Assembly (NCBI GenBank): GCA_963676515.1
Contig: OY781061.1
Location: forward strand, 505,520-537,519
Length of the DNA: 32,000 nt
Reading direction: 5' to 3'
Source of the DNA: Candidatus Cloacimonadota bacterium
Lineage (GTDB): Bacteria; Cloacimonadota; Cloacimonadia; G963667145
Positions 1 to 28,106 of this stretch are shown here, piece after piece. A model generated the notes under the pieces. It ran no database searches, was not told the origin of the DNA, and saw only the letters and a list, made by a program, of their open reading frames with translations. Position 1 is the stretch's first letter; every line of letters starts with the position of its first letter. The position numbers and the translations under genes are program-made.

Positions 1-278
1 TTCTCAATTTTGCTGTCCAATCCAACATCTTCGGCTCTTTTTTGCACAATATCCAGCATCGCTTTTTGCAAATCAAGAGCAAAAACTTTGCCCCTATCAC
101 CAACCATTTTAGCCAGTGGCAAGGTGAAATAACCAGGTCCACAACCAATTTCCAAAACTTTGTCGCCACTTCGCACATAAGAAGCAAACATCTTTTTCGG
201 GTTGTGAACTAACTTGCGAATTTTGCTTAACAAGAATCCAGATTTTTCTACTGGACACACCCTTTTTTCGTTTTTCAT
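1..278 (-). CDS. Class I SAM-dependent methyltransferase, N-terminal part (runs off the window edge)
   Basis: Manual reverse translation gives MKNEKRVCPVEKSGFLLSKIRKLVHNPKKMFASYVRSGDKVLEIGCGPGYFTLPLAKMVGDRGKVFALDLQKAMLDIVQKRAEDVGLDSKIE. It contains the motif I signature LEIGCGPG. Its ATG (276-278) overlaps the TAA stop of the upstream exporter gene (TAATG), so it is the last gene of that operon. Confidence 0.75.
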   Translation of the reverse strand, partial: MKNEKRVCPVEKSGFLLSKIRKLVHNPKKMFASYVRSGDKVLEIGCGPGYFTLPLAKMVGDRGKVFALDLQKAMLDIVQKRAEDVGLDSKIE

Positions 279-2626
279 TATACTTTTCCTCTTTCAACCA
301 CTTTTTGGGGACCAAAGGGCTGGAGCATCCTGATCAAAACGGGAGTGATGAAAAAATCGGATAACAAGGCTGAGCTGATACCGATCATCGCTAAGATTCC
401 CATACTACGCAAAACTTCCGCCTGCGACACTAAGTACACGGAGTAGTTGAGGATCAGCACCAGAGATGTCATCACCAGAGCCACACCGATGGATGCAAAG
501 CAGTCCGAGGAAGCTCTTTTGTAGCTACCGGTCTTCTGATAATAGAGCTTATAGTGATTGATGAAGTGAATGGTATCGTCCACGGCAAGTCCCAGTACCA
601 TCGGCATAATCGTCACCGTGATCATATCCAGAGGTATATCCAGATAGCCCATCGCTCCACCTGCTAGCAGGGCTGGAGTAATGTTGGGAATCATCCCAAT
701 GAGTCCGATGCGGATACCACCAAAAGCGAGCATCAAAATTATCGCTATTATCACCAAAGCTAGCAAAAATGAGTAAATCTGTCCCCAAGTAACCCGCTCT
801 GCCATGGCGATCATCTTCGCCATCGTACCCACTTCTTGGATTTTGGCGGTAGGAAATAGCTCCGCCGCTTTCTTCTTAATCTTAGCAATATCTTTGTCCG
901 CTAAACCTGTATCCATTTCCGAGAGTTCCACCTGGATGCGGTAGCGGCGATAGTCGTAATCTATCCAGCGAGTTGCTTCCTTGCCTCCAGAGTTCTCATA
1001 GAGCAAAAGCTCTTGTGCTATTGCACTTTTTGTGTCTGGGATGCGAAATTCGCTTTCTTTATCATCAAAAAGCACTTTATTCAAATCTTTGAGGATTTTC
1101 ACGATGGAGGTAACTCTTTTGGTCAAGAGAGTCTCCGATTGGATGAACGAAACCAGTTTGTCCAACTTCCTCATATTCTCTGGCTCTTTCACAGATCCGT
1201 TTTCGGGAAATTCTATGATAATGTTGTAAGAGTTCAGCGACCCTATCTGCGATCTAGCAACTTTCATTATTCTTTTCACATAAGGAACTTCCGCTCCCAC
1301 AGTGTCTTCGGCATCAAAAGATATACGAAACAATGAAAAGCCAAAACAGCCCAGCAAAGTTATGAGGATGTAGAAAAAGATTATTTTTTTGCTGTTACCA
1401 AATATCCAATCGCTAAGTTGCCTTAGCCAACCAGTTGCCCACCGCAGATGTGCTACCGTCTCTGCCAAATTTGCTTGCTTGTCTTTACCAAAAGAGAAGA
1501 GAATCGGTGTAAGGCTCAGCACCAAAAGAAAGCTGACCAAGACGATGGCAGCCGAGGTCAAGCCTATCCATTGCAAGATTGGCGAGGAGATAAAAATGAA
1601 AGAGCAAAGTGCCAAAACCGTGGTCAACGCCGTGAAGAGAATAGGCCAGCCCGTTTCTTTTAGTGCATAATAAACGGACTCTTTGCGTTTACCTGTTTCG
1701 GCAAATTCAGTCTTAAAAAAGTTGAAGAAGTGGATGTTGTAACCCACCGCCACAGCAAGTCCCAAGAAAATAGGCATCGTTACCACCGTAGGGTCGAAAG
1801 TTAGCCCCAAATGCCCTTGCAACCCAAAAACCAGCATCAGTCCGAAGACGATAGTCAAAAAGGGAACGAGCATCCCACGCAAAGAGCGAAATGCGAACAA
1901 AAGAATAATGAAAACTACCAAGAAAGAGAACTTCATCACTCGGGGAACTTCCGATGCAAAGAAGTCAGTTTTCCCATACATTACCACTGGTATACCCGTA
2001 GCTTTGGGGTTCAGCTGAGCGTAGGCTGGATTTCGGGATATATCTAGCACCGCCTTGCCTATGTGCAAAGAAGCGTCGTCATCCTCTTTGTCATACCTGA
2101 GTAGTCGCAAGATTATCCATGCTTCTTTACTGTCTGGGCTTATCAGTTGCCCTTTTATTAGCTCTTTGGAAAGAGCCTTAGTGCGTAACTCTTCCAGAGC
2201 TTGCTTGTCCGTAGGAATCTCCTCGGGTATCAGATCCTCTATCACCATACCCCAGTCTGTGCCTTGGCTAAACTCCAATGCGGTGATGCTCAAAACATCA
2301 TCGGCATAAGGGACTTTGTCTTCTAGCTCATATCCCATTTGTCTTATTAACTGTAAATTCTCTTGCGTGAAAACATCGTCACAGCTGATATGCACAGCCG
2401 CCATCTCCGTATTGCCAAAAATCGCCTCCATCTGGTTTTGATCGACGATAGTTTTATCCTCATCACCAAACCAGTTGTCTTCGTCCGAAGATTTCTTTAG
2501 GTGTGGCAAGCCAAAAGCCGTGACCACCAAAAGAGCCAGCAAGCAAAAAAGATACACCCATCTGCGTTTTACGATCCAGTTACCATAGCGGTAAAACCAA
2601 CTATTTATCTTGAGCAAATCTAACAT
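278..2626 (-). CDS. MMPL/RND-superfamily membrane exporter (about 12 TM helices, two large periplasmic loops)
   Basis: 782 aa ORF. It has an N-terminal TM helix, a large soluble loop, a block of 5 hydrophobic helices (GIPVVMYGKTDFFASEV...), a second loop and a second 5-6 helix block ending in VDDTIHFINHY. This is the typical MMPL / predicted RND exporter layout. Confidence 0.85.
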   Translation of the reverse strand: MLDLLKINSWFYRYGNWIVKRRWVYLFCLLALLVVTAFGLPHLKKSSDEDNWFGDEDKTIVDQNQMEAIFGNTEMAAVHISCDDVFTQENLQLIRQMGYELEDKVPYADDVLSITALEFSQGTDWGMVIEDLIPEEIPTDKQALEELRTKALSKELIKGQLISPDSKEAWIILRLLRYDKEDDDASLHIGKAVLDISRNPAYAQLNPKATGIPVVMYGKTDFFASEVPRVMKFSFLVVFIILLFAFRSLRGMLVPFLTIVFGLMLVFGLQGHLGLTFDPTVVTMPIFLGLAVAVGYNIHFFNFFKTEFAETGKRKESVYYALKETGWPILFTALTTVLALCSFIFISSPILQWIGLTSAAIVLVSFLLVLSLTPILFSFGKDKQANLAETVAHLRWATGWLRQLSDWIFGNSKKIIFFYILITLLGCFGFSLFRISFDAEDTVGAEVPYVKRIMKVARSQIGSLNSYNIIIEFPENGSVKEPENMRKLDKLVSFIQSETLLTKRVTSIVKILKDLNKVLFDDKESEFRIPDTKSAIAQELLLYENSGGKEATRWIDYDYRRYRIQVELSEMDTGLADKDIAKIKKKAAELFPTAKIQEVGTMAKMIAMAERVTWGQIYSFLLALVIIAIILMLAFGGIRIGLIGMIPNITPALLAGGAMGYLDIPLDMITVTIMPMVLGLAVDDTIHFINHYKLYYQKTGSYKRASSDCFASIGVALVMTSLVLILNYSVYLVSQAEVLRSMGILAMIGISSALLSDFFITPVLIRMLQPFGPQKVVERGKV

Positions 2627-2641
2627 TTTATCTCCTATTCT

Positions 2642-3796
2642 TTAAAAAGAGTATTCCGCTTTACACCACGCCATGGAGTTATCGGAAAATTTACCAAAAT
2701 TGCCTTGCTGGTCGCCGTCGTAATAGTCGTAACCTAGCAAAATGTGCAGCCCTTGACTGCAATCGTAGTCGCCACTAAATTTACAAAAAATATCTTGCCG
2801 AGCAAGGCTATTCACCGCTTGAGCAGTAAATTCTAACTGCTGACGAAAAACTTTCTTCTTGAGCGTGAGGGTCAGCAAGCTCTCCGACTCATCCCTTTGC
2901 ACATCGACAGAGTAGTCGCAAACCAAATCGGCTGTTAGCTGAGCTGTAATAGTCCAGTCGTTCCCCGGATAGCAGTCTATCCCCAGCAATCCATCCAGCC
3001 ACGGCTTCTCTACCGTTCCTCCAGCAAAAAACTTCCGCTGGTAATAAGCAGACTCCAGACGATACACAAAAGAGCCTTGTGCTGCGGAAGCTTCCACGCC
3101 TACATAGCCAGTTCGCTTGTAGTCTATCACCAAGTCACCTGCCGAGAAACTTTGCACAGGCAACCAGAAATAGTAGCCACTCACTGCAAAATCAACCGCT
3201 CCCAAGTTTTTACCCAACCTGCCTGCTATTTGGGCAGATTCTAGCGTCTTCTCGGGCAAATCGTGCTCCACACCCTTATAACCAATAACATTCCACAAAG
3301 AGTCCGCCAATGGGTACTCTGCTCTGGTCATGTACGGCAGATAGATGATGTCGAGGTCAAAATAATCGGGAGAGTAGCTGAACTTGCATGCATCCACCGC
3401 TAGGCGACTGTCTTGCAAATCTTGGCTGAGTCCCAGCGAAAAGTCTTGCGAGCAGATAATGTCCGTGATACGCAGTCCGTCGGCTTTCCCCCAAGCGATG
3501 ATCTGGCGACCAATCCTCACATCCCAAGAGTCGGCAAAGTAATCGAAATAAGCTTCCTTGAGTTCAAAACTGCTCTGGTCTGTATTATTATCACGCATCG
3601 CCTTCAAGCTAGAAAAGAAGTAGGTGCTTTGCTTGTCTTGGCTCAGTTCCAGCAAAAGCCAGTTCTTATCCAGCAAACTTTGCTGCTCGCCTTGACTCTG
3701 CCAGCCGTGATGCGAAGCAACTTTACCTGCCACATCTAGGGCAAAAATTTGCCAGCAAAAAAAAGTGAGCATTAATAGAAAAAGTTTTTTCATCAA
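2642..3796 (-). CDS. Outer-membrane beta-barrel protein (DUF1302-like)
   Basis: 384 aa. Signal peptide MMKKLFLLMLTFFCWQIFA, the motif RIGRQIIAWGKADGLRITD typical of DUF1302-type barrels, alternating hydrophobic pattern, and a C-terminal aromatic end ...KAEYSF. Its start overlaps the upstream gene's stop (ATGA). Confidence 0.65.
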   Translation of the reverse strand: MMKKLFLLMLTFFCWQIFALDVAGKVASHHGWQSQGEQQSLLDKNWLLLELSQDKQSTYFFSSLKAMRDNNTDQSSFELKEAYFDYFADSWDVRIGRQIIAWGKADGLRITDIICSQDFSLGLSQDLQDSRLAVDACKFSYSPDYFDLDIIYLPYMTRAEYPLADSLWNVIGYKGVEHDLPEKTLESAQIAGRLGKNLGAVDFAVSGYYFWLPVQSFSAGDLVIDYKRTGYVGVEASAAQGSFVYRLESAYYQRKFFAGGTVEKPWLDGLLGIDCYPGNDWTITAQLTADLVCDYSVDVQRDESESLLTLTLKKKVFRQQLEFTAQAVNSLARQDIFCKFSGDYDCSQGLHILLGYDYYDGDQQGNFGKFSDNSMAWCKAEYSF

Positions 3797-4557
3797 AACT
3801 TACCTCTTTTAAGATTTGCAACTTTGAAAATTCTATCAGACACCTCTTGGTTATATTTCACCGATTGTATTTCCAGCAATGTCGTGTGTTTCTCCTGCTC
3901 ATTGTCCATAAAGCGAGAAAACGCTGTCCAGATACCGTCGATTTTTTGGAAATTACTGGCTGTCATCCTCTTCAAAAATCTACCTCTTTTATCGTAAAAC
4001 TCACCTTTTACCACCAGCAAATAATCTTTACTCACCCACTTCACCACTTTGGAGTACTGGTACCCTTCCTCTTTGGGAGTAGACTCCACCACCCAGCAAT
4101 CCGTGTCAGCAAACTTCTCCTCTTGCAGAAGTTTATGCGTATCTTCCTCTGGCTCTCTTTGTCCCATATCGTCATAGGTAAAATCTGTCCCCATAAAGTA
4201 GTCGCTCGTGCTAGAAGAAGCTATCCGCCTTACTTTCCGCAATGCTGGCATATATAGCCATTTGTCGTCATCTTTCGTAGCGTCATCGTACGACCAGTTC
4301 AAAAAAGCTGTCCCCGCAACATCGGCAGGTTGCAAAAACACAAACAGCGATTTCTCATCTTGCCCAAAATCTTTACGAATCATCTTCGTCTGCCTCTCCC
4401 TTGTTCTGCCTTGTCTATTGGTCAGCACCATCTTACTTTCGGAAACCATCGTCTTCCCATCGTCTCTTGCGTCCACTTGCTCCATTATCTCCAATCCCGT
4501 GATCGAAAACAGGCTACTCCCAACCGCTAAAACTATAAATACAAATAAACTTCTCAT
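3793..4557 (-). CDS. LolA-like outer-membrane lipoprotein-sorting family protein
   Basis: 254 aa with a signal peptide. The motif WLYMPALRKVRRIASSSTSDYFMGTDFTYDDM matches the conserved core of the LolA_like family, which usually sits next to DUF1302 proteins and RND exporters. Confidence 0.75.
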   Translation of the reverse strand: MRSLFVFIVLAVGSSLFSITGLEIMEQVDARDDGKTMVSESKMVLTNRQGRTRERQTKMIRKDFGQDEKSLFVFLQPADVAGTAFLNWSYDDATKDDDKWLYMPALRKVRRIASSSTSDYFMGTDFTYDDMGQREPEEDTHKLLQEEKFADTDCWVVESTPKEEGYQYSKVVKWVSKDYLLVVKGEFYDKRGRFLKRMTASNFQKIDGIWTAFSRFMDNEQEKHTTLLEIQSVKYNQEVSDRIFKVANLKRGKF

Positions 4558-8544: not shown

Positions 8545-9954
8545 ATGAATTATTCCACACTCGCACAATGGTGCAACGAGCCTCTACCTCAGTTCCTGAA
8601 ATTCAAGTCGATGGAAAGAGCCGCAGACCAATACCGCATCTCGTTCACCAAGAGTTATCTTTTCTTGCAAATAAACCTCTCGGGAAAAGACAACTTCTGC
8701 TTTTTTACCCAAGACGATACGCTGGACTTCACGCCTGCTTTTTCGGGGGTTATGAGCCTTTTCCAGAACGCTGTCCTCTCGGAAATAAGCCCACTTGGCA
8801 ACGACAGAATTTTAAGCTTCTTATTCCACAAAAGGTCTATTTACGGCGAAAATCTCCTGCTAAAAATTGTAGTGGAACTTATCCCGGGCAAACTGAATAT
8901 TATCTTCTTGGAAGAGAACAAGATTTTGCAAGCCAAAAAGATTTACTCTTTTGCCGACAATCCAGAGCGGCAAATACTCTCTGGGCAAAAATACCTCTTG
9001 CCTGTAAACAAAAACAAGCAAGAAATTTGCTACCGCCCTTTGCCGTGGCACGATCAAGACTACAGCTTCGAATCTGTAAACGACTATCTGGAGCATTTTT
9101 TTTACAACCACATCCACCTGCAAAGATTAGCTATTATCAAAAATAGAGAAGAGAATCAGCGTAAGAAAAAAATAGAGAAAGCTGAAACAAAACTCGCTCA
9201 TCTCAGGGCGACTTGGCAAGATTACAGCAAGACAGAATATTGGAAGATGGCTGGCGAACTGCTAAAATCGGCTTATCACACGATCACGCCAGGATTACAA
9301 GAGATCTCAATAGTAAACTACTGCGACCCTAAGATGCCCAAAATTATTATAAAACTAAAAAAAGAGCTCTCTCCAAGGCAAAATGTCGATCTCTACTTCA
9401 AAAAATATAAGAAAGGGATCAACGGGAAAAAAATCATCGAAAGTCGCATCAAAATGACAGAAGCCGAAATACAGAATCTGAAAAATCAGCCAGACTACAG
9501 TCAAGAAAAAGCAGAATACACGCCCAAAGCAAAACCTAATGAAAAAAAATCTCTGAAGCAGATCAAGATAAACGAAATTTTAAAAATCGTAATCGGCAGA
9601 AACGACGCCGAGAACAACACCATTACCTGCAAACTAGCAGGAAAAACAGATTTATGGTTTCACACCAGAGCTATCAGAGGCTCTCATATCGTGATATTTA
9701 ACCCTTACAAAAAAGATGTTCCCCAAAAAATAATCGAAATTGCAGCGGGTCTGGCTGCCTACTATTCCAAAGCCAAACATTCGGGGAAAGTAGCCGTAGA
9801 CTACACTCACATCCGTTATGTGTGGAAGATAAGAAAGGGTCGTTTAGGACAAGTAAACTACAAAAATCAAAAAACTGTGTTTACCAAACCAAGATCGATG
9901 CGGGAAGTAAAAAAAGAGTTAAACGAATTTATAAAAGATACTAGCAAAGGCTAG
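8545..9954 (+). CDS. NFACT-family protein with a DUF814 (NFACT-R) domain, RqcH/FbpA-like
   Basis: The C-terminal segment IVIGRNDAENNTITCKLAGKTDLWFHTRAIRGSHIVIFN is the DUF814 signature. A central coiled coil is present (REENQRKKKIEKAETKLAHL). The start is uncertain; I prefer MNYSTLAQW at 8545 over 8479, which would overlap the putative terminator. Confidence 0.7.
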   Translation: MNYSTLAQWCNEPLPQFLKFKSMERAADQYRISFTKSYLFLQINLSGKDNFCFFTQDDTLDFTPAFSGVMSLFQNAVLSEISPLGNDRILSFLFHKRSIYGENLLLKIVVELIPGKLNIIFLEENKILQAKKIYSFADNPERQILSGQKYLLPVNKNKQEICYRPLPWHDQDYSFESVNDYLEHFFYNHIHLQRLAIIKNREENQRKKKIEKAETKLAHLRATWQDYSKTEYWKMAGELLKSAYHTITPGLQEISIVNYCDPKMPKIIIKLKKELSPRQNVDLYFKKYKKGINGKKIIESRIKMTEAEIQNLKNQPDYSQEKAEYTPKAKPNEKKSLKQIKINEILKIVIGRNDAENNTITCKLAGKTDLWFHTRAIRGSHIVIFNPYKKDVPQKIIEIAAGLAAYYSKAKHSGKVAVDYTHIRYVWKIRKGRLGQVNYKNQKTVFTKPRSMREVKKELNEFIKDTSKG

Positions 9955-10604
9955 TGAATCTCGATAACTATCCGCCTATTAAGGTCACGATTGGACTGAA
10001 TAGGTCTGCCGCTAGAGTCTTTATTGGGAGCTAAAGGCTTAATATAAGCGTACCCAGAAGCTTTCATCTTATCCGGCGATATTCCCTCGATGATAAAGTA
10101 ACGGACAATATTTGAGGCTCTACCCACAGACAACTCCCAGTTAGAAGGAAAGCGTCTCGTGTTTATCGGCACATCGTCTGTATGCCCCTCGATATCTATA
10201 TTAGGGTCGTAGTAATTAATTGCCTGAATGGAATTAGCTATCTTTTCTAAAATCCCAATATTCTTTTTGATAATAGTGGCTTCTCCCGAACGATAAAGAG
10301 CGTCTGACAAGATGTTTATCGCAATAGATGAACGATTAAGTCGTACAGAAACTATTCCCGCCATCCTTTCCTCTAGAAGCATAGAATCCAAATCTGTTTT
10401 CATCCGCGATAAAGGTGTAGAAAAATCATCTTCGTTAGCTTCTATCTCAGCACGATAACCTTCTTTGAACTCCTGCCACATACCAGAGTTCGTAGTAGAC
10501 ATAGAAACCAACAAAACAAAAAAACAAAGAAGAAGAGTAACCAAATCAGAGTAAGTAGTCAGCCAAGACTCATCAATAAGAGTCTTTTTTCTTTCGAACT
10601 TCAT
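9951..10604 (-). CDS. MotB/OmpA-family stator subunit (peptidoglycan-anchored)
   Basis: 217 aa. The N-terminal TM segment WLTTYSDLVTLLLCFFVLLV carries the conserved channel Asp. The C-terminal OmpA-like domain reads IEGHTDDVPI...FPSNWELSVGRASNIVRYF...NRRIVIEI. Confidence 0.85.
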   Translation of the reverse strand: MKFERKKTLIDESWLTTYSDLVTLLLCFFVLLVSMSTTNSGMWQEFKEGYRAEIEANEDDFSTPLSRMKTDLDSMLLEERMAGIVSVRLNRSSIAINILSDALYRSGEATIIKKNIGILEKIANSIQAINYYDPNIDIEGHTDDVPINTRRFPSNWELSVGRASNIVRYFIIEGISPDKMKASGYAYIKPLAPNKDSSGRPIQSNRDLNRRIVIEIH

Positions 10605-10632: not shown

Positions 10633-11433
10633 TCAAAAATCGTCACCAACATTCATAGCATTTTCTCCATTATCCTCTTTGTCCACTAGCGAACGCAAAA
10701 AATCTTCCACATAAAAAGAAGATTTTTCTTGTATAATAAGGATAACACCTTCCAAAATAAGGTTTTTACGAAACATAACAGACATAGCTATATCTACAGA
10801 TTTATTCGCTCCTGGAATAAAAAAAACTCTAGCTAAAATAAGTCCATAAAAAGTGGTAATCAGAGCCACCGCCATCGCAGGACCAATCTTGGATGGATCG
10901 TCTAATTGACTAAGCAAGATAACCAAACCTATCAAAGTACCCAACATACCAAAAGCTGGCGAAGAACCACCTAAACTTTTCAAAATCTCAGAAGTTTCTT
11001 CTGCGTTTTGATTCTCTCTGGATATTTCGTTCTGGATAAACTCTTTGGACTCTTCCAGAGAGTATCCTGTGGACAAAATAGAAAAAACATATTTATCAAA
11101 AGGGTCGGTAACTTCGGAATATATCTCATCATAAGCTTTCTTGCCACCACTTTGCACTCTTTCTGCCCAATCTTTGATACGACTAATTTCCTGAGTATAA
11201 CTTTTACTATCCATAGGGTACTTAAACATTACCCTGAAAGCAGCGAGAATTGCTTTGCTTGTCCTTACTACTCCACGACCTACAAATTCACTAATGAGCG
11301 TACCACCTACCACGATCAAAATACTGGGGTAGTTGATAAACACTTGCCAATTTGAGGTAGCACTCAATATAGATATTGCAATTACAACCCAAACGAGAAT
11401 AAAAGAGATAAAAGAACTTACAGAACCTATCAT
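10633..11433 (-). CDS. MotA/TolQ/ExbB-family proton-channel subunit (MotA/PomA-like size)
   Basis: 266 aa. It has two N-terminal TM helices, a cytoplasmic loop of about 100 aa, then SPAFGMLGTLIGLV and AVALITTFYGLILARVFFIPGANK. The two prolines are characteristic of MotA. Confidence 0.85.
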   Translation of the reverse strand: MIGSVSSFISFILVWVVIAISILSATSNWQVFINYPSILIVVGGTLISEFVGRGVVRTSKAILAAFRVMFKYPMDSKSYTQEISRIKDWAERVQSGGKKAYDEIYSEVTDPFDKYVFSILSTGYSLEESKEFIQNEISRENQNAEETSEILKSLGGSSPAFGMLGTLIGLVILLSQLDDPSKIGPAMAVALITTFYGLILARVFFIPGANKSVDIAMSVMFRKNLILEGVILIIQEKSSFYVEDFLRSLVDKEDNGENAMNVGDDF

Positions 11434-11436
11434 AAA

Positions 11437-12093
11437 TTAGTACCCTATTTTATTTAACATTTGCCTCACACCTTGGATACTATTATTTAAACGCAAAGAG
11501 TTTGTCCAATTTTTACGAGCCAATGATAAATTACCCAACATATAATAAACACTTCCTTTCAAAGCATAAGCTCTTGCGGTAGGTTTTTGATTTATAGAAC
11601 TGTTAACTTGCTGCAAAGCTTTTTCATAACTACCTGCATAAAAGCTATTTTGAGCTTGTACCAAAAAATCACTTTCTGAAGGACTTGAGCTTGCATTTTC
11701 ATCTTGAGAAGAAGGCGTTTCAACGCTAGCATAATCGTCTAGAGATTCACCTGTAGATCCAGATTTTGAAACATCTATCTGAACATTGTTATCTCTAGGG
11801 TCAAGGCTCAAAATCACTTCTGAAGATTTGTTTCGATACTTGATCAGAATCTCATTTTTTTGAGGACGAAGAGTGTTCTGTTGGATAATCGTAGTGCTTT
11901 GCTCTGTATCCTGATCCACTACTCCTACTCCCCTATCTATACTTTTACCTGCTACTGTTCCAGAAGAGCTAACCATAGCCTCTCTTTCCGAAACTGTACT
12001 TTCCTCTACTCCCCTTTTAAGAACATACTTATTCCAAAGGGAACATCCAGAAAACAAGAAAAGACTAGAAATTATAACTAAAATTAATCTCAT
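11437..12093 (-). CDS. TPR-containing lipoprotein
   Basis: Lipobox LFLFSGC, a low-complexity Ser/Glu/Asp-rich linker, and a C-terminal TPR-like segment YEKALQQVNSSINQKPTARAYALKGSVYYMLGNLSLARKNWTNSLRLN. It sits 3 nt upstream of motA. Confidence 0.6.
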   Translation of the reverse strand: MRLILVIISSLFLFSGCSLWNKYVLKRGVEESTVSEREAMVSSSGTVAGKSIDRGVGVVDQDTEQSTTIIQQNTLRPQKNEILIKYRNKSSEVILSLDPRDNNVQIDVSKSGSTGESLDDYASVETPSSQDENASSSPSESDFLVQAQNSFYAGSYEKALQQVNSSINQKPTARAYALKGSVYYMLGNLSLARKNWTNSLRLNNSIQGVRQMLNKIGY

Positions 12094-13216
12094 ACTTCAG
12101 CGCCCCAAACTCAATATAACTACTTTCATTTTGTTTCAATGTCCTACCAAACGGTATAACTCCCAGACCAAGACCTACTTCTATATCTTCGGTAAGATCG
12201 GATGTAGCACCAATCATGGTGGTCAAGAAGCTCCCAGAATAATTAATAGGAACAAAAAACTCACCTTTCATATATGGCTTAAGCCAATAATTGTCTTTTA
12301 AAGATTTAAGCTGACTTTCTTTTTTATAATATTTCGTCATCACTCCACCACCTGCGTAACCCAAGAAGGCTGTCGGTAAAGTGGAAAAACCCTCAATATT
12401 GTTTTCCAATGTCAGCTGGCAATTCACGATAGACAAGCCTGCCGAGAGAGTCATCATAACCTCTGCAAAAGAGAAGTTAGATTTTTGCTTACGCACAGCT
12501 CCTAGACGATAATCGATCATCCTTGCAGAGTTGCTACTACTTCCCCCATAATTACTGTCAAAGATAGACACTCCGTCTCTTTTGTAGTCGTTGACTGTAA
12601 AGAAGCCAACATTAAAATCAAGAGCGTACTGCTTTGGAATATCTATATCACGGTCGTTGTTAGGTCCTTCGATATAAGCTTTCGACCAAATAATCTCTCC
12701 TGTTTTGTTGCTTACCATCTTTAAGGAGAGCAAAACATCTCCGTAGGCACTACGAGTGCAATTCCCCTCGATGAAAGCGTCTATGTTGTACTTCTCTCCC
12801 ATATGTCGGAGCTCATCAAAAGATCTGGCAGAATTAACATAACTAAAAGAGGTATCGGTAATTTTTACTCTGGCGAGATTGAACTCTGGCACTACCACCA
12901 AATCTATCGCCTCGTTGTTTAAAAGGACTTGCTCTAGTTTCGACTTCACAAAACGCACCATCCCGATAGAAATAGCGTCCCGATCAGCTTTGACACGATA
13001 GACTGCAACCCTCTTGACCCCTAAAGGGAAATTGAGGACAGACTCCTGCACTCTGAGCATAATGCGAGAGATATTGCGAACTTCCGATCTGTCACTACGA
13101 GGATAAGAGCCCACAGCACTCATGTTCGAAAATTGATTATACTCAAACTGAGCAAAAAGAGAAGAAAAACAAACAGTTAAAACAAAAACAAATAAAACTT
13201 TCTTAATACTCTTCAT
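12065..13216 (-). CDS. Putative outer-membrane protein: periplasmic N-domain plus beta-barrel-like C-half
   Basis: Signal peptide MKSIKKVLFVFVLTVCFSSLFAQ (start moved to 13216, 10 nt after the upstream stop). The C-terminal half has an alternating pattern and ends ...EINFSYNF. The N-domain pattern (RVAVYRV..., IDAFIEGNCTR...DVLLSLKMVSNKTGEIIWS) recalls CsgG/LpoB/TolB-N-type periplasmic scaffold domains, but this is recollection only. Confidence 0.5.
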   Translation of the reverse strand: MKSIKKVLFVFVLTVCFSSLFAQFEYNQFSNMSAVGSYPRSDRSEVRNISRIMLRVQESVLNFPLGVKRVAVYRVKADRDAISIGMVRFVKSKLEQVLLNNEAIDLVVVPEFNLARVKITDTSFSYVNSARSFDELRHMGEKYNIDAFIEGNCTRSAYGDVLLSLKMVSNKTGEIIWSKAYIEGPNNDRDIDIPKQYALDFNVGFFTVNDYKRDGVSIFDSNYGGSSSNSARMIDYRLGAVRKQKSNFSFAEVMMTLSAGLSIVNCQLTLENNIEGFSTLPTAFLGYAGGGVMTKYYKKESQLKSLKDNYWLKPYMKGEFFVPINYSGSFLTTMIGATSDLTEDIEVGLGLGVIPFGRTLKQNESSYIEFGALKYEINFSYNF

Positions 13217-15182
13217 TTGCTGCTCTACCTTCACTTTGGTTTCCACCAATATTACGCCCGCCAGCTTCTCTAATCTCTTTTCTGATTACGGACATCATTT
13301 TTCTTCTGGATCTCTCTATATCATCTGCTTTTAATTTGTTTTCATTTATTCTCAGTTCTGACCTAATAATCTCTCTCATCCGCTCGGGAACATTAGACAA
13401 AATAGAGTTAATCCTCACCTCGTCTACTCCAACCAACGCTGCAGACAATAATTCTCTGTCCATTTTTTGGATAGCTCTGACCATAATATCTTCTTCCAAG
13501 TTGCCTAGGTCATCAAAAGCTATAAAGTATTTCAAGACTTTCTCTGCTGTCTCCACATCCGCTTTCGTGATGTCGTCGATAAACTCTTTTTGCTGAGATG
13601 TAGTGAGAGTATCCAATATCTCCAGCATCTTGCCAGCACCATCGGAAGAAACATACTCCATTCCTCGCATCTTGAGTGCCTCTTTTGCCAAACGACTAGA
13701 GACCTCTTTATACACAGAAGTCGGGATTTTGCCCAGTTTGCCCATATTTCCCATCACCGCAGACCGCTGCTCCAATGGATAAGACGCCAGTAGTTCCGAA
13801 GCTTTCTCTGCAGACACTTGAGTAATGACCAGTGCTTGCACGCCCTCAGGTTCGCCTTTGAGAGCTTGTCTTATCTGTTCTACGGACATTGCGTTCAAGA
13901 AACCAAACATCCCTGTGTCGTCCTTGCCATCGTCAGTGACGGTCAAAGAACTCCAAGCATTTTTAAAATTTTGCAACGCTTCCAACTTAGTTTTCGTGTC
14001 CAAATCTTCCATATTGCGAATATTCCAAGAAAGCAACTTGAAATCGTCGTGCGAAACTTTACCTTCCAAAAGGTCAAGCAAATTTTCATCTATAGCTTTG
14101 ATTAGCTTGGTAGCTTTATCTATACCTTCGTCTCCACCACTATCTACCCAACCTTGCAAGACAATGCCCACATTTTTCGCTTCTGCCAAAAATTTATTAA
14201 TCGCAAAAGAACGAAGTTTTTTGTATTCTGCAATCTCCATTTTTTCGGGCTCAGAAGTTCGATTGACTTTCCGAAGCTCCCGCATCTCTTGCATCAAACT
14301 ATCAAACTGCTCATCATATCGAGGGAAGTTTACTTTCGGTTGTACCATATTGGAGTCTTGCACTCCAGAGTTCTTTTTGGATATGAAGAAAAAAGCTACC
14401 AAAAATCCAATTAGCAACAACAAGCCTATCAATCCTGCGATTAAATAAGTTAAGAAGTCTGAGTTATCTTCGTCTGGAAGAGGCTCGTCTTGGACTTGCT
14501 CATCCTCCATCTCTTTTCTTCTTTTTTCTTCTTCTGCTAACCTAGCAGCCTCTTCTTCGGCTTTTTTAGCCTCTTCTATCATTTTTTGCTTTTGATTAGT
14601 AAACTTCACCAAAGTCACATTGACAATGTCGCCTCGGTAAATATCTATCCCAGCCTTCATCTTTACCAGTTCATCTATAAAAGAGACATCTTCTGGCGTA
14701 TAAGCAGATGCGTCCAACATTACATTTACAACTAGGTTGTCTATCTCATAGTCCGATGCTCCGCCCATGCCTGTAGGCACCCGACTCTCTGTAATGCTAG
14801 TCTGACTAGGCATCGAGATATCTCCTAGTCCTTCTAGATCGTCCACAAACTCGTTGACGAATCTTCCCTCGGTACCAGGCATTACCAAATTCCCAAGACC
14901 GATACCAGAACTTACAGCTTGTGATGTTTGCAACATCCCCATACCCAAACCCATACCTTGCCTAGCTTTCAGGTTGACAGCAATATCAACCTCGTAAGTC
15001 TCTTTTTCGCAATAAGATGCCAAAGTGGATGAAAGTCTTATTTCATAAGCTCTAGATATCTTGTCCGCGTACATTATGACGCTGAGAGGCTCACTACTCC
15101 CCTGCTCAAAAGAGTACTGAGCTTGTAATAGACTAAAAGCCCAAAAAACAAGTAAAAATAATCTAAATTTTCTTGTTTGCAT
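13203..15182 (-). CDS. Membrane protein fusing a FliF-like periplasmic ring-building motif, one TM helix and FliG middle + C-terminal domains
   Basis: 659 aa.
- Residues 1-21 form a signal/anchor.
- Residues 145-194 (YEIDNLVVNVMLDASAYTPEDVSFIDELVKMKAGIDIYRGDIVNVTLVKF) parallel the FliF C-terminal periplasmic signature (...LSVAVVVN...IEDL...G....RGD.L.V....F).
- An EK-rich coil follows, then a TM helix at 243-267.
- Residues 425-500 resemble FliG_M (IRQALKGEPEGVQALVITQVSAEKASELL).
- Residues 520-640 resemble FliG_C (KYFIAFDDL; NVPERMREIIRSELR aligns with the torque helix MSQRAADILRDDL). Confidence 0.7.
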   Translation of the reverse strand: MQTRKFRLFLLVFWAFSLLQAQYSFEQGSSEPLSVIMYADKISRAYEIRLSSTLASYCEKETYEVDIAVNLKARQGMGLGMGMLQTSQAVSSGIGLGNLVMPGTEGRFVNEFVDDLEGLGDISMPSQTSITESRVPTGMGGASDYEIDNLVVNVMLDASAYTPEDVSFIDELVKMKAGIDIYRGDIVNVTLVKFTNQKQKMIEEAKKAEEEAARLAEEEKRRKEMEDEQVQDEPLPDEDNSDFLTYLIAGLIGLLLLIGFLVAFFFISKKNSGVQDSNMVQPKVNFPRYDEQFDSLMQEMRELRKVNRTSEPEKMEIAEYKKLRSFAINKFLAEAKNVGIVLQGWVDSGGDEGIDKATKLIKAIDENLLDLLEGKVSHDDFKLLSWNIRNMEDLDTKTKLEALQNFKNAWSSLTVTDDGKDDTGMFGFLNAMSVEQIRQALKGEPEGVQALVITQVSAEKASELLASYPLEQRSAVMGNMGKLGKIPTSVYKEVSSRLAKEALKMRGMEYVSSDGAGKMLEILDTLTTSQQKEFIDDITKADVETAEKVLKYFIAFDDLGNLEEDIMVRAIQKMDRELLSAALVGVDEVRINSILSNVPERMREIIRSELRINENKLKADDIERSRRKMMSVIRKEIREAGGRNIGGNQSEGRAANEEY

Positions 15183-15457
15183 TTTTATTCCCGATATTAA
15201 ACAATGTGATACCTTTTTTTACTTCTTATCATCAAACGGAATTATAAATAGTATATGTGTCAAACCTTTTTTTCCTTTTTAAGATTTTCTTGCCCCTCTT
15301 TGTGTACTTAAATTCATACAAGCCTGTGTCTTAATTTCATTTTTTATTTTTTTTAAAATTTTATAAATTTTTATACTTTATTGCATAATTACAAGTTAAG
15401 TGCTTTTGCCTTTGGTTTAATTCTTGACTTATATCTGTTCTTTTTTAGAAACGGACT

Positions 15458-16447
15458 ATGAAAAAAAAATTACTTTTTTTACTCTTTTTTTGTTCTCTTT
15501 TTTTGATTTTTGTTTATAAACAACATTTGTCTTCAAAAAAAATCAGCAAAACAAGAATTGCTTTAGGAACTTTTATCGAGATCAGTCTGGAAGGAAATCC
15601 AAAGAGGATAGATAAATACATCGACACTTGCTTTGAGATTATCGAAGATTTACAACACAAACTGGGCTACCAAAATCCCAAAAGCGATCTAAGCTTTATA
15701 AATGGTTGCCAAAAAGCTCCTATCACTCCAGAGATTTTTTCTCTTTTAGATTTTTGCCAAGAGTTTTATCTTCTTTCAGAAAAAAGATTTGACCCAACCG
15801 TCGGAGCACTAATAGATCTTTGGGATTTTACTAAAAAAAGAGTGCCTACTCCTGCTAAGATAAAGCAAGCACAAAAAATTTGCGGGTTAGAAAAAGTCAA
15901 ATACGACACCCTTATGCTCATTAAACCTAAAAACCTGAAAATTCACCTGGGAGGAGTCGCCAAAGGGTTTATAATGCAAAAAGTTTGCGACTATCTACAA
16001 GAAAAGAAAATCAAAAGTGGATACATAAATGCTGGAGGAGATATTTCTATTTTTGGGAACGAATACAAGCAAATAGGAATTGCTCATCCTAGGCAAAAAG
16101 AAAAACTTATCGATACTATCCAAATAAAGACAGGTGCGGTAGTAACCTCGGGAGATTACGAGAGGTTTTTTGTAAAAAACGGTAAAAGGTATCATCACAT
16201 CATCGATCCTATCAGCGGATACCCCAGCGAAAACTGCGTCAGCGTTACGGTGGTGGATTCTAGCATCCTCAGAGCCGATGCCCTGGCTACCGCCTATTTC
16301 TTGATGCCCGTGGAAGAAGCTATCCTTATGGCTAATCGACGCAATCGACGCAAGAGTGCCGTTTTGATCTACTACCTAGACCACGAAGGAGCGTTGCAAA
16401 GCAGAGAGTCTTGCGAATTTGCTCAGTACAGGATGAAAAAAAGATGA
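15458..16447 (+). CDS. apbE: FAD:protein FMN transferase ApbE family
   Basis: 329 aa with a signal/anchor. Motifs RFDPTVGALIDLW, LGGVAKGF, INAGGDI and SGDYERFF..GKRYHHIIDPISGYP are typical ApbE signatures. Confidence 0.85.
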   Translation: MKKKLLFLLFFCSLFLIFVYKQHLSSKKISKTRIALGTFIEISLEGNPKRIDKYIDTCFEIIEDLQHKLGYQNPKSDLSFINGCQKAPITPEIFSLLDFCQEFYLLSEKRFDPTVGALIDLWDFTKKRVPTPAKIKQAQKICGLEKVKYDTLMLIKPKNLKIHLGGVAKGFIMQKVCDYLQEKKIKSGYINAGGDISIFGNEYKQIGIAHPRQKEKLIDTIQIKTGAVVTSGDYERFFVKNGKRYHHIIDPISGYPSENCVSVTVVDSSILRADALATAYFLMPVEEAILMANRRNRRKSAVLIYYLDHEGALQSRESCEFAQYRMKKR

Positions 16448-21755: not shown

Positions 21756-23120
21756 ATGATAAAAGTTATAATTGACGAGAAACTAGATAATTACAAAAAG
21801 CAAATTAGAGATGTTATTGATCTTAGCTTTAACTATTTGGGTATTCAATACGAGATTATTTCGGGTCTAGTGGAGATAAATGTGGAGGATGTCCTCGTTT
21901 GTTACTCTCTACAAAAACCTTCCACACGAGAAATAACGGAACTTATCGGGCTTAGTGCCAGCACAAATATATTTTTTATCACTATCAATTTGGAGCTATA
22001 CGAAAAAATCGGTCTTTCTAGGCTAAAATCTCTGAAAAAAGAGTTTCACGATTTTTACATCTTAGGAAACGAACCGCCAACTATTGAGAAGAAAAAAGGC
22101 GAATTTGGCAACTTTTTCTTTTACAACTTCGACCTTTGGGGCAACCTTTTCCAGCTAGCTAACTACCAAAAAAATAGCTCCATACCCGTCTGCAATCTAC
22201 TAATATCTGATTTCTTGCAACTTGTCAAAAATTGTGTCTCTAACGACGAGTTTTTCCTCATTCGCACAAAACTTTGGCCAGAAAATCAGAAATTTGCTCT
22301 GTGTCTGACTGCAGAGATCGACAAACTATACAAATGGCAAAGCTACTCAAAAACTTTGAAAAAAATCTTACTCAACCTCTTTGCTCACCCTTTGGCAGCT
22401 CTGCAAGAGTACTTTGAACTAAATTTCAAAAGCGAAGAACCTTATTGGGTGTTCCCTCTCTTGCAATCTATCCCCAATATTACCTACTGTTTGCCCGCAA
22501 AAAATGACAACTTTGATCCGCAAGAGAAAAGTGTCGCTAATCAACTCTCAGCCTTGGAAAAACAACTAATTAAACTAGAGACCAAAAAGTTGCCCACCTA
22601 TAAGAGCTTTTTATTCCCGCTCTGTTACTCAGAGGTTTCCGTTTGTTTGAATAGTAGCGAGTTCGTAAAAGGTGGCTACAAACACCTGAGCGAATCTGCC
22701 GCCCAAGCTCTGGTCGCTACCAGCATAGACAATGGACACCTAGCTGGTGGCGTAACTTGTCTGGGCTTTAGATTTTCCGACCTCTACGACATACCCTACG
22801 CCTTCAAGATACTCGAAAATCTAGTAAAACTAGGGAAAAAACCCGCTGTTTACTTCGCCGACCAAAACCAAATCAAGAGTTGGCTAAAACTTCGCCAAAA
22901 AATCAAATGGGTAGTCGAGCAAAATAAGGTGAAAATCCTCAGCAACTACGATATAGAAAACCTTGTGCTAGAAATTATCGGAAATTACGAAGTGGAGTCC
23001 CACACAGGTTGTACTTTGCGAATCGAAAAAAACCTACTTTACATCAGCAATATCAAAAAATACACCACAGCAACTCTCACGCTGAAGAAATTTTATCGTC
23101 TTAATCGACGGATAGATTAA
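21756..23120 (+). CDS. Hypothetical protein (454 aa, no motif I can recognise)
   Basis: A long uninterrupted ORF with plausible codon usage and no strong hydrophobic segments. I recognise no family by eye. Confidence 0.5.
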   Translation: MIKVIIDEKLDNYKKQIRDVIDLSFNYLGIQYEIISGLVEINVEDVLVCYSLQKPSTREITELIGLSASTNIFFITINLELYEKIGLSRLKSLKKEFHDFYILGNEPPTIEKKKGEFGNFFFYNFDLWGNLFQLANYQKNSSIPVCNLLISDFLQLVKNCVSNDEFFLIRTKLWPENQKFALCLTAEIDKLYKWQSYSKTLKKILLNLFAHPLAALQEYFELNFKSEEPYWVFPLLQSIPNITYCLPAKNDNFDPQEKSVANQLSALEKQLIKLETKKLPTYKSFLFPLCYSEVSVCLNSSEFVKGGYKHLSESAAQALVATSIDNGHLAGGVTCLGFRFSDLYDIPYAFKILENLVKLGKKPAVYFADQNQIKSWLKLRQKIKWVVEQNKVKILSNYDIENLVLEIIGNYEVESHTGCTLRIEKNLLYISNIKKYTTATLTLKKFYRLNRRID

Positions 23121-25776: not shown

Positions 25777-26112
25777 TTAGAATAATTTTAATTCGCCATT
25801 TTTGTAAGCAGCGATAGCTTCCACTCCGCTCATAGCACCAGCTCCCACATACATCTTGACTCCCAGCTCGTCCAGCACTCTCTTGGCGTTCCCACCTGGA
25901 CCATTACCAGTAATGACCACCTCTACCTCTTTTCCTTCCAATTTGGAAGCTGTCAAAGGACCTACTCCGTGAGCTTGCTCTTTGCAAGCACTGTTGTCGA
26001 TGACTTCTATCACTTTCTCGTCTTCGCATATTAATAAAAATTCTGTTCTGCCAAATCTAGGGTCGATAGAATCTGTAAGAGTTTGACCTTTAGAAGTTAC
26101 TGCTATTTTCAT
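25777..26112 (-). CDS. NifX/NifB-C-type small protein (orange-protein-like)
   Basis: 111 aa. MKIAVTSKGQTLTDSIDPRFGRTEFLLICED...VEVVITGNGPGGNAKRVLDELGVKMY is the same fold family as the Desulfovibrio ORP protein. Confidence 0.75.
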   Translation of the reverse strand: MKIAVTSKGQTLTDSIDPRFGRTEFLLICEDEKVIEVIDNSACKEQAHGVGPLTASKLEGKEVEVVITGNGPGGNAKRVLDELGVKMYVGAGAMSGVEAIAAYKNGELKLF

Positions 26113-26999
26113 TTTTTCTCCTGTATTTCTTTAATTTTTTTGTATATTTTTGCAAACTTATCCCGATAACCTTCGTGCGATTCCACGACAGATTTCCCCT
26201 GCATCACTGCGTCGTAAAATGCTTTATCATAAGGAAGATAGCCCACTACTTCCACCTGAAATTGCCCTAAGTACTCTTTTATCTGGTTGGTGATGTTTTC
26301 GTTGAGGTCGTACTTATTGATGATGGCTACAGACTGGATGCTAAACTTGTTCACCAGCTCCAGCACCCTTTTCAGATCGTGAAATCCCGAAACAGTAGGC
26401 TCTACCACCAGCAACACCAGACTCGCTCCAGACAAGCTGGAAACCACGGGACAACCGATGCCGGGAGAACCATCTACCAACACGATTTTCTTGTTACTCT
26501 CTTTAGCTATTTTCTTAGCTCGGTTCTTCAGCTCTGCCACCAGTTTACCAGAGTTCTCGCCACCTACATCCAGATGAGCGTGCACCATCGTGGTCTTGGT
26601 CTTGATCTGAGAGATAAGCACCTCTCCAGTCAAGCGAGGCAGGTTCGTGATAGCCTCACTCGGACAAATTCTGGCACAGTAGCCACAACCTTCACAACGG
26701 AAAGGATCTATGGTGTACTCCCTTTCGCCAAGCTTGTCTATTGCCAAAAAACTGCAAGCCGTCTGGCATTTGCCACACCCGATGCACTTCTTAGCGTCTA
26801 TCTGGGCTAACTCGCCAGCGTAAAAAACTTCTCTTTCTCTCTCTACGGGCGAGACCACCAAGTGCAAATCTGGGGCGTCTACATCGCAATCTGCCAAGAT
26901 CAGCTCGCTACCTCCGATCACAGCCAAGGCAGCACTAACAGAGGTTTTTCCTGTGCCTCCCTTGCCCGAGATTACCACTATTTCTTGTATATCTTTCAT
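26109..26999 (-). CDS. MinD/ParA-type P-loop ATPase with an inserted double 4Fe-4S ferredoxin domain
   Basis: P-loop SGKGGTGKTS and two Cys clusters (CIGCGKCQTACSF, CEGCGYCARICPSEA). Stop/start overlaps with both neighbours. Confidence 0.85.
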   Translation of the reverse strand: MKDIQEIVVISGKGGTGKTSVSAALAVIGGSELILADCDVDAPDLHLVVSPVEREREVFYAGELAQIDAKKCIGCGKCQTACSFLAIDKLGEREYTIDPFRCEGCGYCARICPSEAITNLPRLTGEVLISQIKTKTTMVHAHLDVGGENSGKLVAELKNRAKKIAKESNKKIVLVDGSPGIGCPVVSSLSGASLVLLVVEPTVSGFHDLKRVLELVNKFSIQSVAIINKYDLNENITNQIKEYLGQFQVEVVGYLPYDKAFYDAVMQGKSVVESHEGYRDKFAKIYKKIKEIQEKK

Positions 27000-27901
27000 A
27001 ATTTTGCCCCCATTCCTGCCACTAGATAGTCGTAAATCGAACGCAGATTTTCCTGCACCTCTGGGTTATCCTCATAGATTAAGTTCCCTTTTGAATAATC
27101 TTCGGCGATTTTTTTGCTTTCCCCTATTTTGGCGATAATCTCCACCTGATTCTGCTGCACAAAGTCTGCTAACAGCTGATCATCAGCCACCCATTTATTG
27201 ACCACTACAGCCAAGGGCTTACCGAGTGCTTTGGCTACTGCCACCGCTAGAGAAGCATCGTAAAGCCCAAAAGGGGTCGGCTCTACTACCAGCAATACCA
27301 AATCTGCTCTACTGAAAGTCTCCACAGCTGGGCAAGCCGTTCCGGGAGGAGAGTCAATAATGGTTAGTCCTGAAAGCAAAATATTCTCGTCCAGATAATC
27401 CAGAACTTCCGCTATTACCGGAACAGCCTGTTCTTGCCCAACATCGAGTCTTCCCTCGATAAATTCCATATTCTCATCTTGAAAAAAGCTAATCTCTCCC
27501 ACTCTATACTCTTGTGGATGCAATGCCTTGGCAGGACAGAGCTCCCAGCACGCTTTGCAACTGTGGCAGAGCTGAGGGAAAGTCATCACCAAACTTTTGG
27601 TCTGAATGATAGCATTAAAATTGCAAACCTTTTGGCAGTTACCACAAAATAAGCAAAGCTCCTGATCCCAAGCGGGAATAGCTCTTTTCACTGGTCGCCG
27701 CTGCACCAAAGGCAACGCAAGAAAAAGCCCAGAGTTTGGCTCTTCTACATCCAGATCCGCTAGTCTTACTTTGCATTTTTGGGCTATCCAGCGGCTGAGA
27801 TTTACAGCCAAAGTGGTCTTGCCTGTGCCGCCTTTTCCGCTCGCTATAGCGACACGAAACTCTTTTTGCTTCGGGAAACTTTTTTCGCTACTTTTTTGCA
27901 T
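26996..27901 (-). CDS. MinD/ParA-type P-loop ATPase with an inserted double 4Fe-4S ferredoxin domain (paralog)
   Basis: P-loop SGKGGTGKTT and Cys clusters CLFCGNCQKVCNF and CHSCKACWELCPAKA. Confidence 0.85.
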   Translation of the reverse strand: MQKSSEKSFPKQKEFRVAIASGKGGTGKTTLAVNLSRWIAQKCKVRLADLDVEEPNSGLFLALPLVQRRPVKRAIPAWDQELCLFCGNCQKVCNFNAIIQTKSLVMTFPQLCHSCKACWELCPAKALHPQEYRVGEISFFQDENMEFIEGRLDVGQEQAVPVIAEVLDYLDENILLSGLTIIDSPPGTACPAVETFSRADLVLLVVEPTPFGLYDASLAVAVAKALGKPLAVVVNKWVADDQLLADFVQQNQVEIIAKIGESKKIAEDYSKGNLIYEDNPEVQENLRSIYDYLVAGMGAKL

Positions 27902-28106
27902 CGTTGTCTTTTGTTAAATTTTCTGAGAAAAAGCGATTTCCCCTGCCAAAACCTGCTCCTCTGCCTCTACCTCTGCCTCCGAATATTCCTCTTCCAGTTC
28001 CCACAGTCTCACCTTTCGTGGCAGCGTCTGCATCTGCGCATCTTCCTAGTCCTCTACCCGTCATGCTTCCTTGTCCGTTAGGACCTTTTCCGTCTAATCC
28101 TGGCAT
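27888..28106 (-). CDS. DUF5320-family small Gly/Arg-rich protein
   Basis: 72 aa. MPGLDGKGPNGQGSMTGRGLGRC... is the typical N-terminus of DUF5320 proteins, which are routinely found between Mrp and MinD-Fer4 genes. Confidence 0.65.
   Translation of the reverse strand: MPGLDGKGPNGQGSMTGRGLGRCADADAATKGETVGTGRGIFGGRGRGRGAGFGRGNRFFSENLTKDNDAKK

Follow-up and report, generated by a model that had tools for sequence, protein, structure and literature searches.

Gene organisation at the locus

We analysed a 32,000-nucleotide stretch of DNA, hereafter the window, from a Candidatus Cloacimonadota bacterium (GenBank assembly GCA_963676515.1, contig OY781061.1, positions 505,520 to 537,519 of the forward strand; coordinates are those of the window unless another locus is named). 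On its minus strand the window carries a five-gene operon in the order FliF-FliG, outer-membrane barrel protein, TPR lipoprotein, MotA and MotB, whose first gene encodes one polypeptide combining parts of the flagellar ring protein FliF with FliG, a rotor protein. Genes 2 to 5 lie on the strand of gene 1 and overlap or are a few bases apart. The operon and its borders comprise the following features (RBM, ring-building motif; aa, amino acids; ORF, open reading frame):

13203..15182, minus strand: gene 1, fusion of FliF (RBM3, transmembrane helix, tail) with FliG (N, M and C domains), 659 aa (ORF, Pfam, NCBIfam, profile, AlphaFold, Foldseek)
12065..13216, minus strand: gene 2, ~383 aa, secreted; periplasmic domain at the N-terminus, beta-rich C-terminus (...YEINFSYNF); always the second gene
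11437..12093, minus strand: gene 3, lipoprotein of 218 aa with an LFSGC lipobox, a low-complexity linker and C-terminal TPR (ORF, Pfam, orthologues)
10633..11433, minus strand: gene 4, MotA/PomA-type stator A subunit, 266 aa (Pfam MotA_ExbB, E 1e-22; PomA structures, E 3e-28)
9951..10604, minus strand: gene 5, MotB-type stator B subunit, 217 aa, with YSD channel Asp, plug and OmpA-like domain (Pfam MotB_plug, E 1e-14; OmpA, E 3e-14)
9940..9955, minus strand: terminator-like hairpin across the MotB stop codon (9951-9953), with a T-run just downstream (consensus match only)
15183..15457, no strand: AT-rich intergenic region of 275 bp between the operon and a divergent ApbE gene, the presumed promoter region

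The block 15001-16000, which spans this intergenic region, has the lowest GC content in the window (0.315). To follow the operon across genomes, hidden Markov models (HMMs) of the five proteins were run against all ORFs of the window and of 50 fetched loci. Among these 51 sources, 37 carried the five genes in order, 13 were cut by a contig end but kept the order, and a single one differed; the same order was found in relatives at 71%, 30% and ~25% identity. The differing locus (L011, 1-6683) holds a divergent family member of 724 aa (P0078) that has a TPR protein upstream and, downstream, a 212-aa and a 945-aa TPR protein; MotAB is not adjacent. Clustering of the flanking ORFs revealed no further conserved gene family around the module, which is therefore self-contained. 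This operon context, absent from a preliminary description of the DNA made from the sequence alone, is what gives the fusion its meaning.

Gene 1 is a natural FliF-FliG fusion

Pfam, the family profile and the AlphaFold model agree on the domain order of the gene 1 product: signal peptide, FliF RBM3, EK-rich helix, one transmembrane (TM) helix, FliF C-terminal tail, and FliG N, M and C domains. Its parts, all on the minus strand, are (pLDDT, predicted local distance difference test; dN, nonsynonymous rate):

15117..15182: signal-peptide-like N-terminus (...LLQA/QY), residues 1-22, in place of FliF TM1 (hydrophobic, ending in 'AQ' family-wide; cleavage inferred)
14949..15095: first half of RBM3, residues 30-78, with helix 33-55 and strand 63-73 (pLDDT ~89-97; Vibrio FliF alignment from residue 267; Foldseek S-ring/RBM3 chains)
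14763..14948: Gly/Met-rich insert at the beta-collar position, residues 79-140, with the [LM]PG motif (P102, G103; pLDDT <50)
14595..14762: second half of RBM3, residues 141-196, with strand 145-157, helix 163-177, strand 186-192 and RGD (Pfam YscJ_FliF_C; pLDDT ~97)
14457..14594: EK-rich periplasmic helix or spacer, residues 197-242 (model helix 197-229; poorly conserved, dN above the other parts)
14373..14456: single TM helix, residues 243-270, equivalent to FliF TM2 (hydropathy scan and model helix 243-270)
14133..14372: cytoplasmic FliF C-terminal tail, residues 271-350, with the W345 motif at its end (profile alignment extends to the FliF C-terminus)
13911..14132: FliG_N-like domain, residues 351-424 (3hjl from residue 11, 5tdy_B, Foldseek; dN/dS 0.005)
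13593..13910: FliG_M, residues 425-530, with EPEG at the EHPQ position (Pfam FliG_M, E 1.1e-9; 1lkv alignment)
13263..13592: FliG_C and torque helix (P599, R601, S608, E609), residues 531-640 (Pfam FliG_C, E 1.6e-12)

The AlphaFold model, built on an alignment of 139 family sequences, reached a pLDDT of 81.5 (40.7 with nine close homologues alone) and past the TM helix consists of helices in succession to residue 639. When it was compared with the Protein Data Bank (PDB) by Foldseek, whole Salmonella C-ring FliG chains were retrieved first, with 312-333 aligned columns for chains of 310-331 residues and E-values down to 1e-10, followed by FliF S-ring/RBM3 chains (E ~1e-3, target TM-scores 0.5-0.59). 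Searches of PDB sequences with the family profile gave Thermotoga FliG_MC (1lkv, E 6.6e-50), Aquifex full-length FliG (3hjl, residues 11-328, E 2e-44) and, for FliF alone, 6scn (residues 236-559, E 4.9e-8) and 8z5s (residues 251-579, E 3e-9). Against 8z4d, an engineered FliF-FliG fusion of Vibrio, the profile aligned in one collinear stretch, positions 26-599 with chain residues 267-938 (E 1.8e-46). At the level of sequence, the matches to FliG, to the FliF-FliG fusion and to FliF far exceed chance.

These data show that in gene 1 the C-terminal half of FliF (RBM3, TM helix and FliG-binding tail) is naturally fused, end to end, with a complete FliG comprising its N, M and C domains. The FliF-like part lies on the outer side of the membrane and the FliG part on the inner side. 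One strong hydrophobic helix at ~243-270, preceded by the EK-rich helix 197-229, is present as had been described. The preliminary description had seen in gene 1 a truncated FliF fused to a FliG without its N-domain; the fusion itself is borne out by the collinear alignment with 8z4d and by Pfam, profile and model, and the missing N-domain is not.

RBM3 is the only ring-building motif in the FliF part

The proposal that residues 145-194 form the last periplasmic part of FliF was correct, since Pfam YscJ_FliF_C (PF08345) matches exactly there, with 24.8 bits against a cut-off of 23.8, and family member P0096 matches the whole of that profile. The RGD pattern of this region, found at the equivalent place in Vibrio FliF, contains D185, the sole invariant residue among the 139 members; G184 is present in 134 and R183 in 115 of them. 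In the AlphaFold model the domain has an RBM-type alpha-beta-(insert)-beta-alpha-beta fold, that is, a ring-building motif split by an insert. The insert is 62 aa long in gene 1 and shorter in other members, and its pLDDT lies below 50. It carries an [LM]PG motif that aligns with the 'IPGALSNQPP' region of FliF, P102 being kept in 138/139 and G103 in 135/139 members.

The Gly/Met-rich segment had been taken for a stand-in for RBM1-RBM2. It instead lies inside RBM3 (residues 79-140), whose first helix and strand are formed by residues 30-78, and RBM1 and RBM2 are absent: Pfam YscJ_FliF, which represents them, had no match in the gene 1 product or in 10 further members, and the span between signal peptide and RBM3 comprises only ~8 residues.

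Both sides of the FliF-FliG interface are present at the junction

The C-terminal 'NP....V..W' motif of FliF is kept, with W345, and the 'G..KAA' start of FliG_N follows directly. Pfam FliG_N gave only a cross-match at residues 450-541, under its cut-off. The family profile matched the FliG_N chain 5tdy_B with an E-value of 3.7e-4. A sub-profile covering residues 318-425 brings the C-terminal end of Vibrio FliF (NEPELAAQVVKNWMND) into register with 'gnpelvaevleswie' of the family, W on W; the alignment of the W motif with Vibrio 'VKNWMND' scores 11 bits in a small search space. When Vibrio FliG is taken without its N-terminal extension of 20 residues, an unbroken alignment into the FliG_N 'G..KAA' is obtained (33 bits); the E-values of this sub-profile search, which covered four sequences, are indicative only. 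Because the sub-profile alignment is continuous across the junction, we conclude that FliF and FliG are fused end to end with both sides of the FliF-tail/FliG_N interface.

FliG_N is hence not missing, as had been supposed: the profile aligns with both 3hjl and 5tdy_B, and Foldseek covers entire FliG chains. The suggestion that a covalent fusion makes FliG_N dispensable likewise falls, both partners of the interface, the W345 tail motif and the 'G..KAA' start, being still there.

The FliG part keeps the torque helix but not the FliM-binding motif

FliG_M and FliG_C had been assigned correctly. Pfam FliG_M (PF14841) matches residues 435-505 with 38.8 bits (cut-off 25) and Pfam FliG_C (PF01706) residues 537-638 with 48.1 bits (cut-off 23.3). 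NCBIfam TIGR00207 aligns residues 425-642 with fliG positions 111-325 at 84.3 bits, under its equivalog cut-off of 226.7.

In the torque helix, R601 corresponds to E. coli R281, S608 to D288 and E609 to D289, which confirms the earlier reading of a kept Arg, a D289-to-Glu and a D288-to-Ser exchange. Counted over the 139 members, position 601 is basic in 135 and position 609 acidic in 78, and position 608 is acidic in 30. Judged from these columns, the R281 equivalent appears to be kept and the acidic pair to be partly kept. The EHPQR motif for FliM binding is not kept; only its Glu is conserved (E444, 122/139), the H, P and Q positions reading S/P, P/E/D and G/R across the family.

The operon encodes a flagellar-type stator

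The MotA/MotB pair carries the hallmarks of flagellar-type stators, namely the channel Asp, the plug and the OmpA-like peptidoglycan anchor. The channel Asp motif of MotB is present in 33/33 orthologues, and MotA has acidic residues (D, E, E) at the positions of PomA E96, E97 and E99. The pair shares with the PomAB/MotAB stators of the 'FIT' clade (PMC12505986) the four TM helices and conserved prolines of MotA as well as the Asp, plug and OmpA-like domain of MotB, and its best matches are PomA, MotP, MotD and MotS. It differs from them in scoring under all NCBIfam equivalog cut-offs (PomA, 137 against 341 bits; MotD, 154 against 283 bits), in non-basic residues at the R88/K89 positions, and in its partner, a fused FliF-FliG.

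MotAB-type motors also power the Zorya anti-phage systems, and MotB matches ZorB models with an E-value of 6.5e-15. This match is generic, however; ZorA, ZorC and ZorD gave no matches, MotA is closest to PomA, and the operon stands among housekeeping genes with conserved synteny. We therefore reject a Zorya-like system as exceedingly improbable.

A stand-alone gene for a PilZ-domain protein lies upstream of the operon in one distant locus only (L007, 5409-5813). In other bacteria PilZ proteins act as brakes or stabilisers of flagellar stators.

Genes 2 and 3 point to the outer membrane

Gene 2 is predicted from its sequence to encode an outer-membrane barrel protein. In 34 of 41 distinct sequences it ends in Phe, preceded by an alternating pattern, like the beta-signal of outer-membrane barrels, and weak OMP_b-brl matches were found in 6/31 members. 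Pfam and PDB sequence searches gave no significant match; the very weak matches to FlgO, TolB_N and PorP_SprF serve as leads only. Gene 3 encodes a lipoprotein in most members, and its TPR passes the Pfam threshold in distant orthologues.

Lipoproteins, TPR-type scaffolds and outer-membrane proteins are likewise encoded alongside stators in the case of FlgO/FlgP/FlgT, MotX/MotY and PflA/PflB. The FlgO/TolB_N matches of gene 2 lie far below significance (E 0.07-0.14), so that kinship with this group is a lead only. One locus (L009) contains a second gene 2-gene 3 pair at 14185-15676, ~2 kb downstream of the main operon (HMM E 4e-35 and 5e-15); the outer-membrane pair can therefore duplicate independently of rotor and stator.

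The fusion family is large and under purifying selection

A word-indexed search found eight close relatives on chromosomes of ~1.55 Mb. An exhaustive search of 1.84 billion cluster representatives in a library clustered at 50% identity yielded 2155 matching clusters at E<1e-3, 280 at E<1e-10 and 70 at E<1e-30. The best 150 matches mostly have a length of ~600 aa, and the alignments of many run between about residues 145 and 640 of the query. In a hydropathy scan the first 60 showed a hydrophobic N-terminus, ~180-230 residues, one strong TM helix and ~350-400 residues. Two apparently unfused, FliG-only variants (P0087, P0135) proved to be fragments at contig ends.

Compared with an orthologue of 91% identity, gene 1 has an overall dN/dS of 0.032; the FliG_N-like domain stands at 0.005, the RBM3 halves at 0.006 and 0.014, and each domain where it could be estimated at <0.08. 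Synonymous sites are near saturation, which makes these ratios rough but leaves their direction clear. Gene 1 is a real ORF under strong purifying selection.

These results bear on the idea that the operon is the decaying, now functionless leftover of a flagellum that was lost. In its favour, filament-less rotor proteins have been reported in 11% of genomes classed as non-motile (PMC12199754). A dN/dS of 0.03 with saturated synonymous change, intact reading frames in 44 distinct orthologues, the fixed five-gene order and the number of clusters at E<1e-30 and E<1e-10 all speak against decay, and we reject this explanation as having next to no probability.

No further flagellar genes were found in the surroundings of the operon

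The closest loci lie on complete chromosomes of 1.54-1.59 Mb labelled Candidatus Cloacimonadota or Cloacimonadales. Some distant loci, including L008 and L010, have neighbours of the type IX secretion system (T9SS; PorZ_N, Por_Secre_tail), and further distant loci come from marine Tara metagenomes. The module is widespread in Cloacimonadota and other uncultured lineages.

Among the ORFs of at least 150 aa scanned in the 32-kb window, no flagellar genes beyond FliF-FliG and MotAB of the operon were found; the others are housekeeping or transport genes and two Bro-N genes. The Pfam-annotated flanks of seven loci (L001, L007-L011 and L051, the last a 1.3-kb fragment) contained no genes for export gate, rod, hook, filament or FliM/FliN.

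Gene 1 might nevertheless encode the MS-ring/C-ring protein of a true but unusual flagellum whose remaining genes stand elsewhere in the genome. Every domain of gene 1 is flagellar, laboratory fusions of FliF and FliG do assemble rings (PMC11481574, PMC6079021), and flagellar genes exist in some Cloacimonadota, a survey having found flagellar gene sets in 5 of 46 genomes only (bioRxiv 10.1101/2021.10.08.463351). Yet RBM1/2, the seat of the export gate, is absent, the rod-holding collar is replaced by a short insert, and the FliM-binding motif is not kept. The partners in the operon are an outer-membrane barrel and a lipoprotein rather than fliE/H/I, an arrangement fixed in all sources with enough DNA bar one, and no flagellar genes lie within 32 kb. 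An unusual flagellum is on this evidence a distinctly unlikely explanation.

Comparison with known ring proteins and envelope motors

With flagellar FliF and FliG of Salmonella, Vibrio, Thermotoga and Aquifex, gene 1 shares RBM3 with RGD, TM2, the W-motif tail, the N, M and C armadillo domains of FliG, a torque helix with the R281 equivalent, and a MotA/MotB partner. Unlike them, it is one polypeptide and not two, begins with a signal peptide instead of TM1 and lacks RBM1/RBM2. The beta-collar of flagellar FliF is reduced here to a short, poorly ordered insert. In contrast to flagellar FliG, EHPQR has been lost, the operon has no fliM, fliN or export genes, and TIGR00207 stays far under the equivalog level.

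FliF-FliG fusions with the same head-to-tail order are known as engineered or spontaneous variants (Vibrio 8Z4D/8Z4G, PMC11481574; Salmonella full-frame fusion, PMC6079021). Those contain a full-length FliF with RBM1/2 and both TM helices inside a complete flagellum, whereas gene 1 is natural, N-terminally truncated and part of a five-gene operon. The alpha-beta-beta-alpha-beta ring-building motif with an insertion between two strands is shared with SctJ/YscJ/PrgK and SpoIIIAG, which, in contrast, come without FliG, are not driven by a stator and belong to secretion or sporulation channels. The non-flagellar 5:2 motors GldLM/PorLM, ExbBD-TonB and TolQR-TolA resemble the module as ion-driven inner-membrane motors tied to the outer membrane, and some of our loci come from T9SS-bearing organisms. 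They act, however, through an elongated periplasmic subunit and not through a FliG ring, and the A and B subunits of the module are of the flagellar type.

A putative rotor-stator machine built from flagellar parts

The gene 1 product is probably the rotor subunit of a compact rotor-stator machine that is driven by ions, is made of flagellar parts and has neither the flagellar secretion system nor the switch. In such a machine the RBM3 domains would form an S-ring-like periplasmic ring, held above the membrane by the EK-rich helix, and the fused FliG domains would make a ring beneath the membrane. Peptidoglycan-anchored MotA5B2 units would pass H+ or Na+ and push the torque helix of FliG_C. 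Since the FliM-binding EHPQR is not kept and the operon has no FliM/FliN gene, the ring would be expected to turn one way only. Without RBM1/2 an export gate would have no seat, and without a beta-collar a rod would have no socket; with neither in place, the output might pass through the conserved [LM]PG loop atop RBM3 to the TPR lipoprotein, to the periplasmic domain of gene 2, or to both, and would drive some envelope or surface process. More tentatively, and short of an even chance in our estimate, the module may be a free-standing rotary nanomachine independent of any flagellum, in which a FliF-FliG ring turned by MotAB delivers torque to the outer-membrane barrel and the TPR lipoprotein.

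The main rival is a non-rotating energy transducer, in which the ion flow through MotAB drives conformational work on a static FliF-FliG scaffold and force reaches the outer membrane through genes 2 and 3, in the manner of Tol-Pal or TonB-ExbBD. The module spans the envelope, including the TPR lipoprotein and the outer-membrane barrel, as a transducer would require. Several observations that fit a static scaffold weigh at the same time against a turning rotor. Two distant members (P0090, P0121) have an N-terminal periplasmic LysM ahead of the RBM3-like part; it would tether the supposed rotor to peptidoglycan and is hard to square with a freely turning ring. The charge pairs between stator and rotor are loosely conserved: the D288 equivalent is acidic in the minority of members given above, MotA has Q and S where PomA R88/K89 pair with FliG in Vibrio, and its charged rotor-facing positions vary over six orthologues. 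Other points count against the rotor generally. The assembly of a ring, its rotation and output, the coupling to genes 2 and 3 and the independence of a flagellum are all inferred; the low pTM of the model (predicted TM-score, 0.38) makes the placement of its domains relative to one another uninformative; and the evidence on flagellar genes covers the window and the locus flanks. On the other side stand features of a turning rotor, namely a FliG complete with N, M and C domains, a ring-building motif and, in 135/139 members, a basic residue at the R281 position; the plug and OmpA anchor of MotB match those of flagellar-type stators. On balance we regard the transducer as doubtful and favour the rotor-stator machine.

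Other features of the window

An ApbE flavin-transferase gene adjoins the operon in the window (15458-16447, plus strand) and in two Cloacimonadota-type relatives (L001, 8750-9727; L009, 12602-13555). Since ApbE matures Na+-pumping Nqr/Rnf complexes, its place beside the operon might be a clue to the coupling ion, but may also be no more than synteny within the lineage. Further features of the window are:

278-4557, minus strand: MMPL-family transporter, DUF1302-like and LolA-like/DUF1329 genes in a row, a lipid/lipoprotein export-type cluster unrelated to the fusion
21756-23120, plus strand: ORF of 454 aa without Pfam match, its position conserved in L001 (3216-4580)
23534-23794, minus strand: three tRNA genes, Leu-TAA, Cys-GCA and Gly-GCC
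26109-28920, minus strand: three consecutive MinD/ParA/Mrp-type P-loop NTPase genes, two with 4Fe-4S ferredoxin inserts
29429-30280 and 30698-31549, plus strand: tandem Bro-N genes of 283 aa, 97% identical (272/281), in a lower-GC block

The Bro-N pair arose by recent duplication and may stem from a phage or mobile element.

Implications for flagellar evolution

Our full-text literature searches, whose coverage excluded most subscription journals so that an earlier report is possible, returned no prior description of the module; they yielded engineered FliF-FliG fusions and surveys of filament-less rotor proteins (PMC12199754). The passages searched in a recent study of MotAB evolution do not mention it. 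Where proteins of the family carry a name, they are annotated as 'flagellar motor switch protein FliG' or 'hypothetical'. Genome surveys may for that reason score these proteins and their MotAB as flagellar or motility genes, and the module may account for part of the reported filament-less rotor proteins.

If the module is indeed a free-standing rotary machine, it would be the first known case of a rotor-stator core that works with no type III export apparatus, rod or switch. It would then be a descendant of the flagellar motor that was stripped down and given a new use, or else a living analogue of a motor stage that preceded secretion. The FliG-MotAB torque core would then be a portable unit beyond flagella and an addition to the short list of biological rotary machines; were rotation without a flagellum demonstrated, it would deserve the name of a new kind of machine. 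With only five proteins, the module would also be a minimal system in which to study how rotor and stator work together in the absence of some 40 other flagellar genes, and it would bear on the old question of whether rotor and stator could have stood apart from the secretion apparatus in the evolution of the flagellum.

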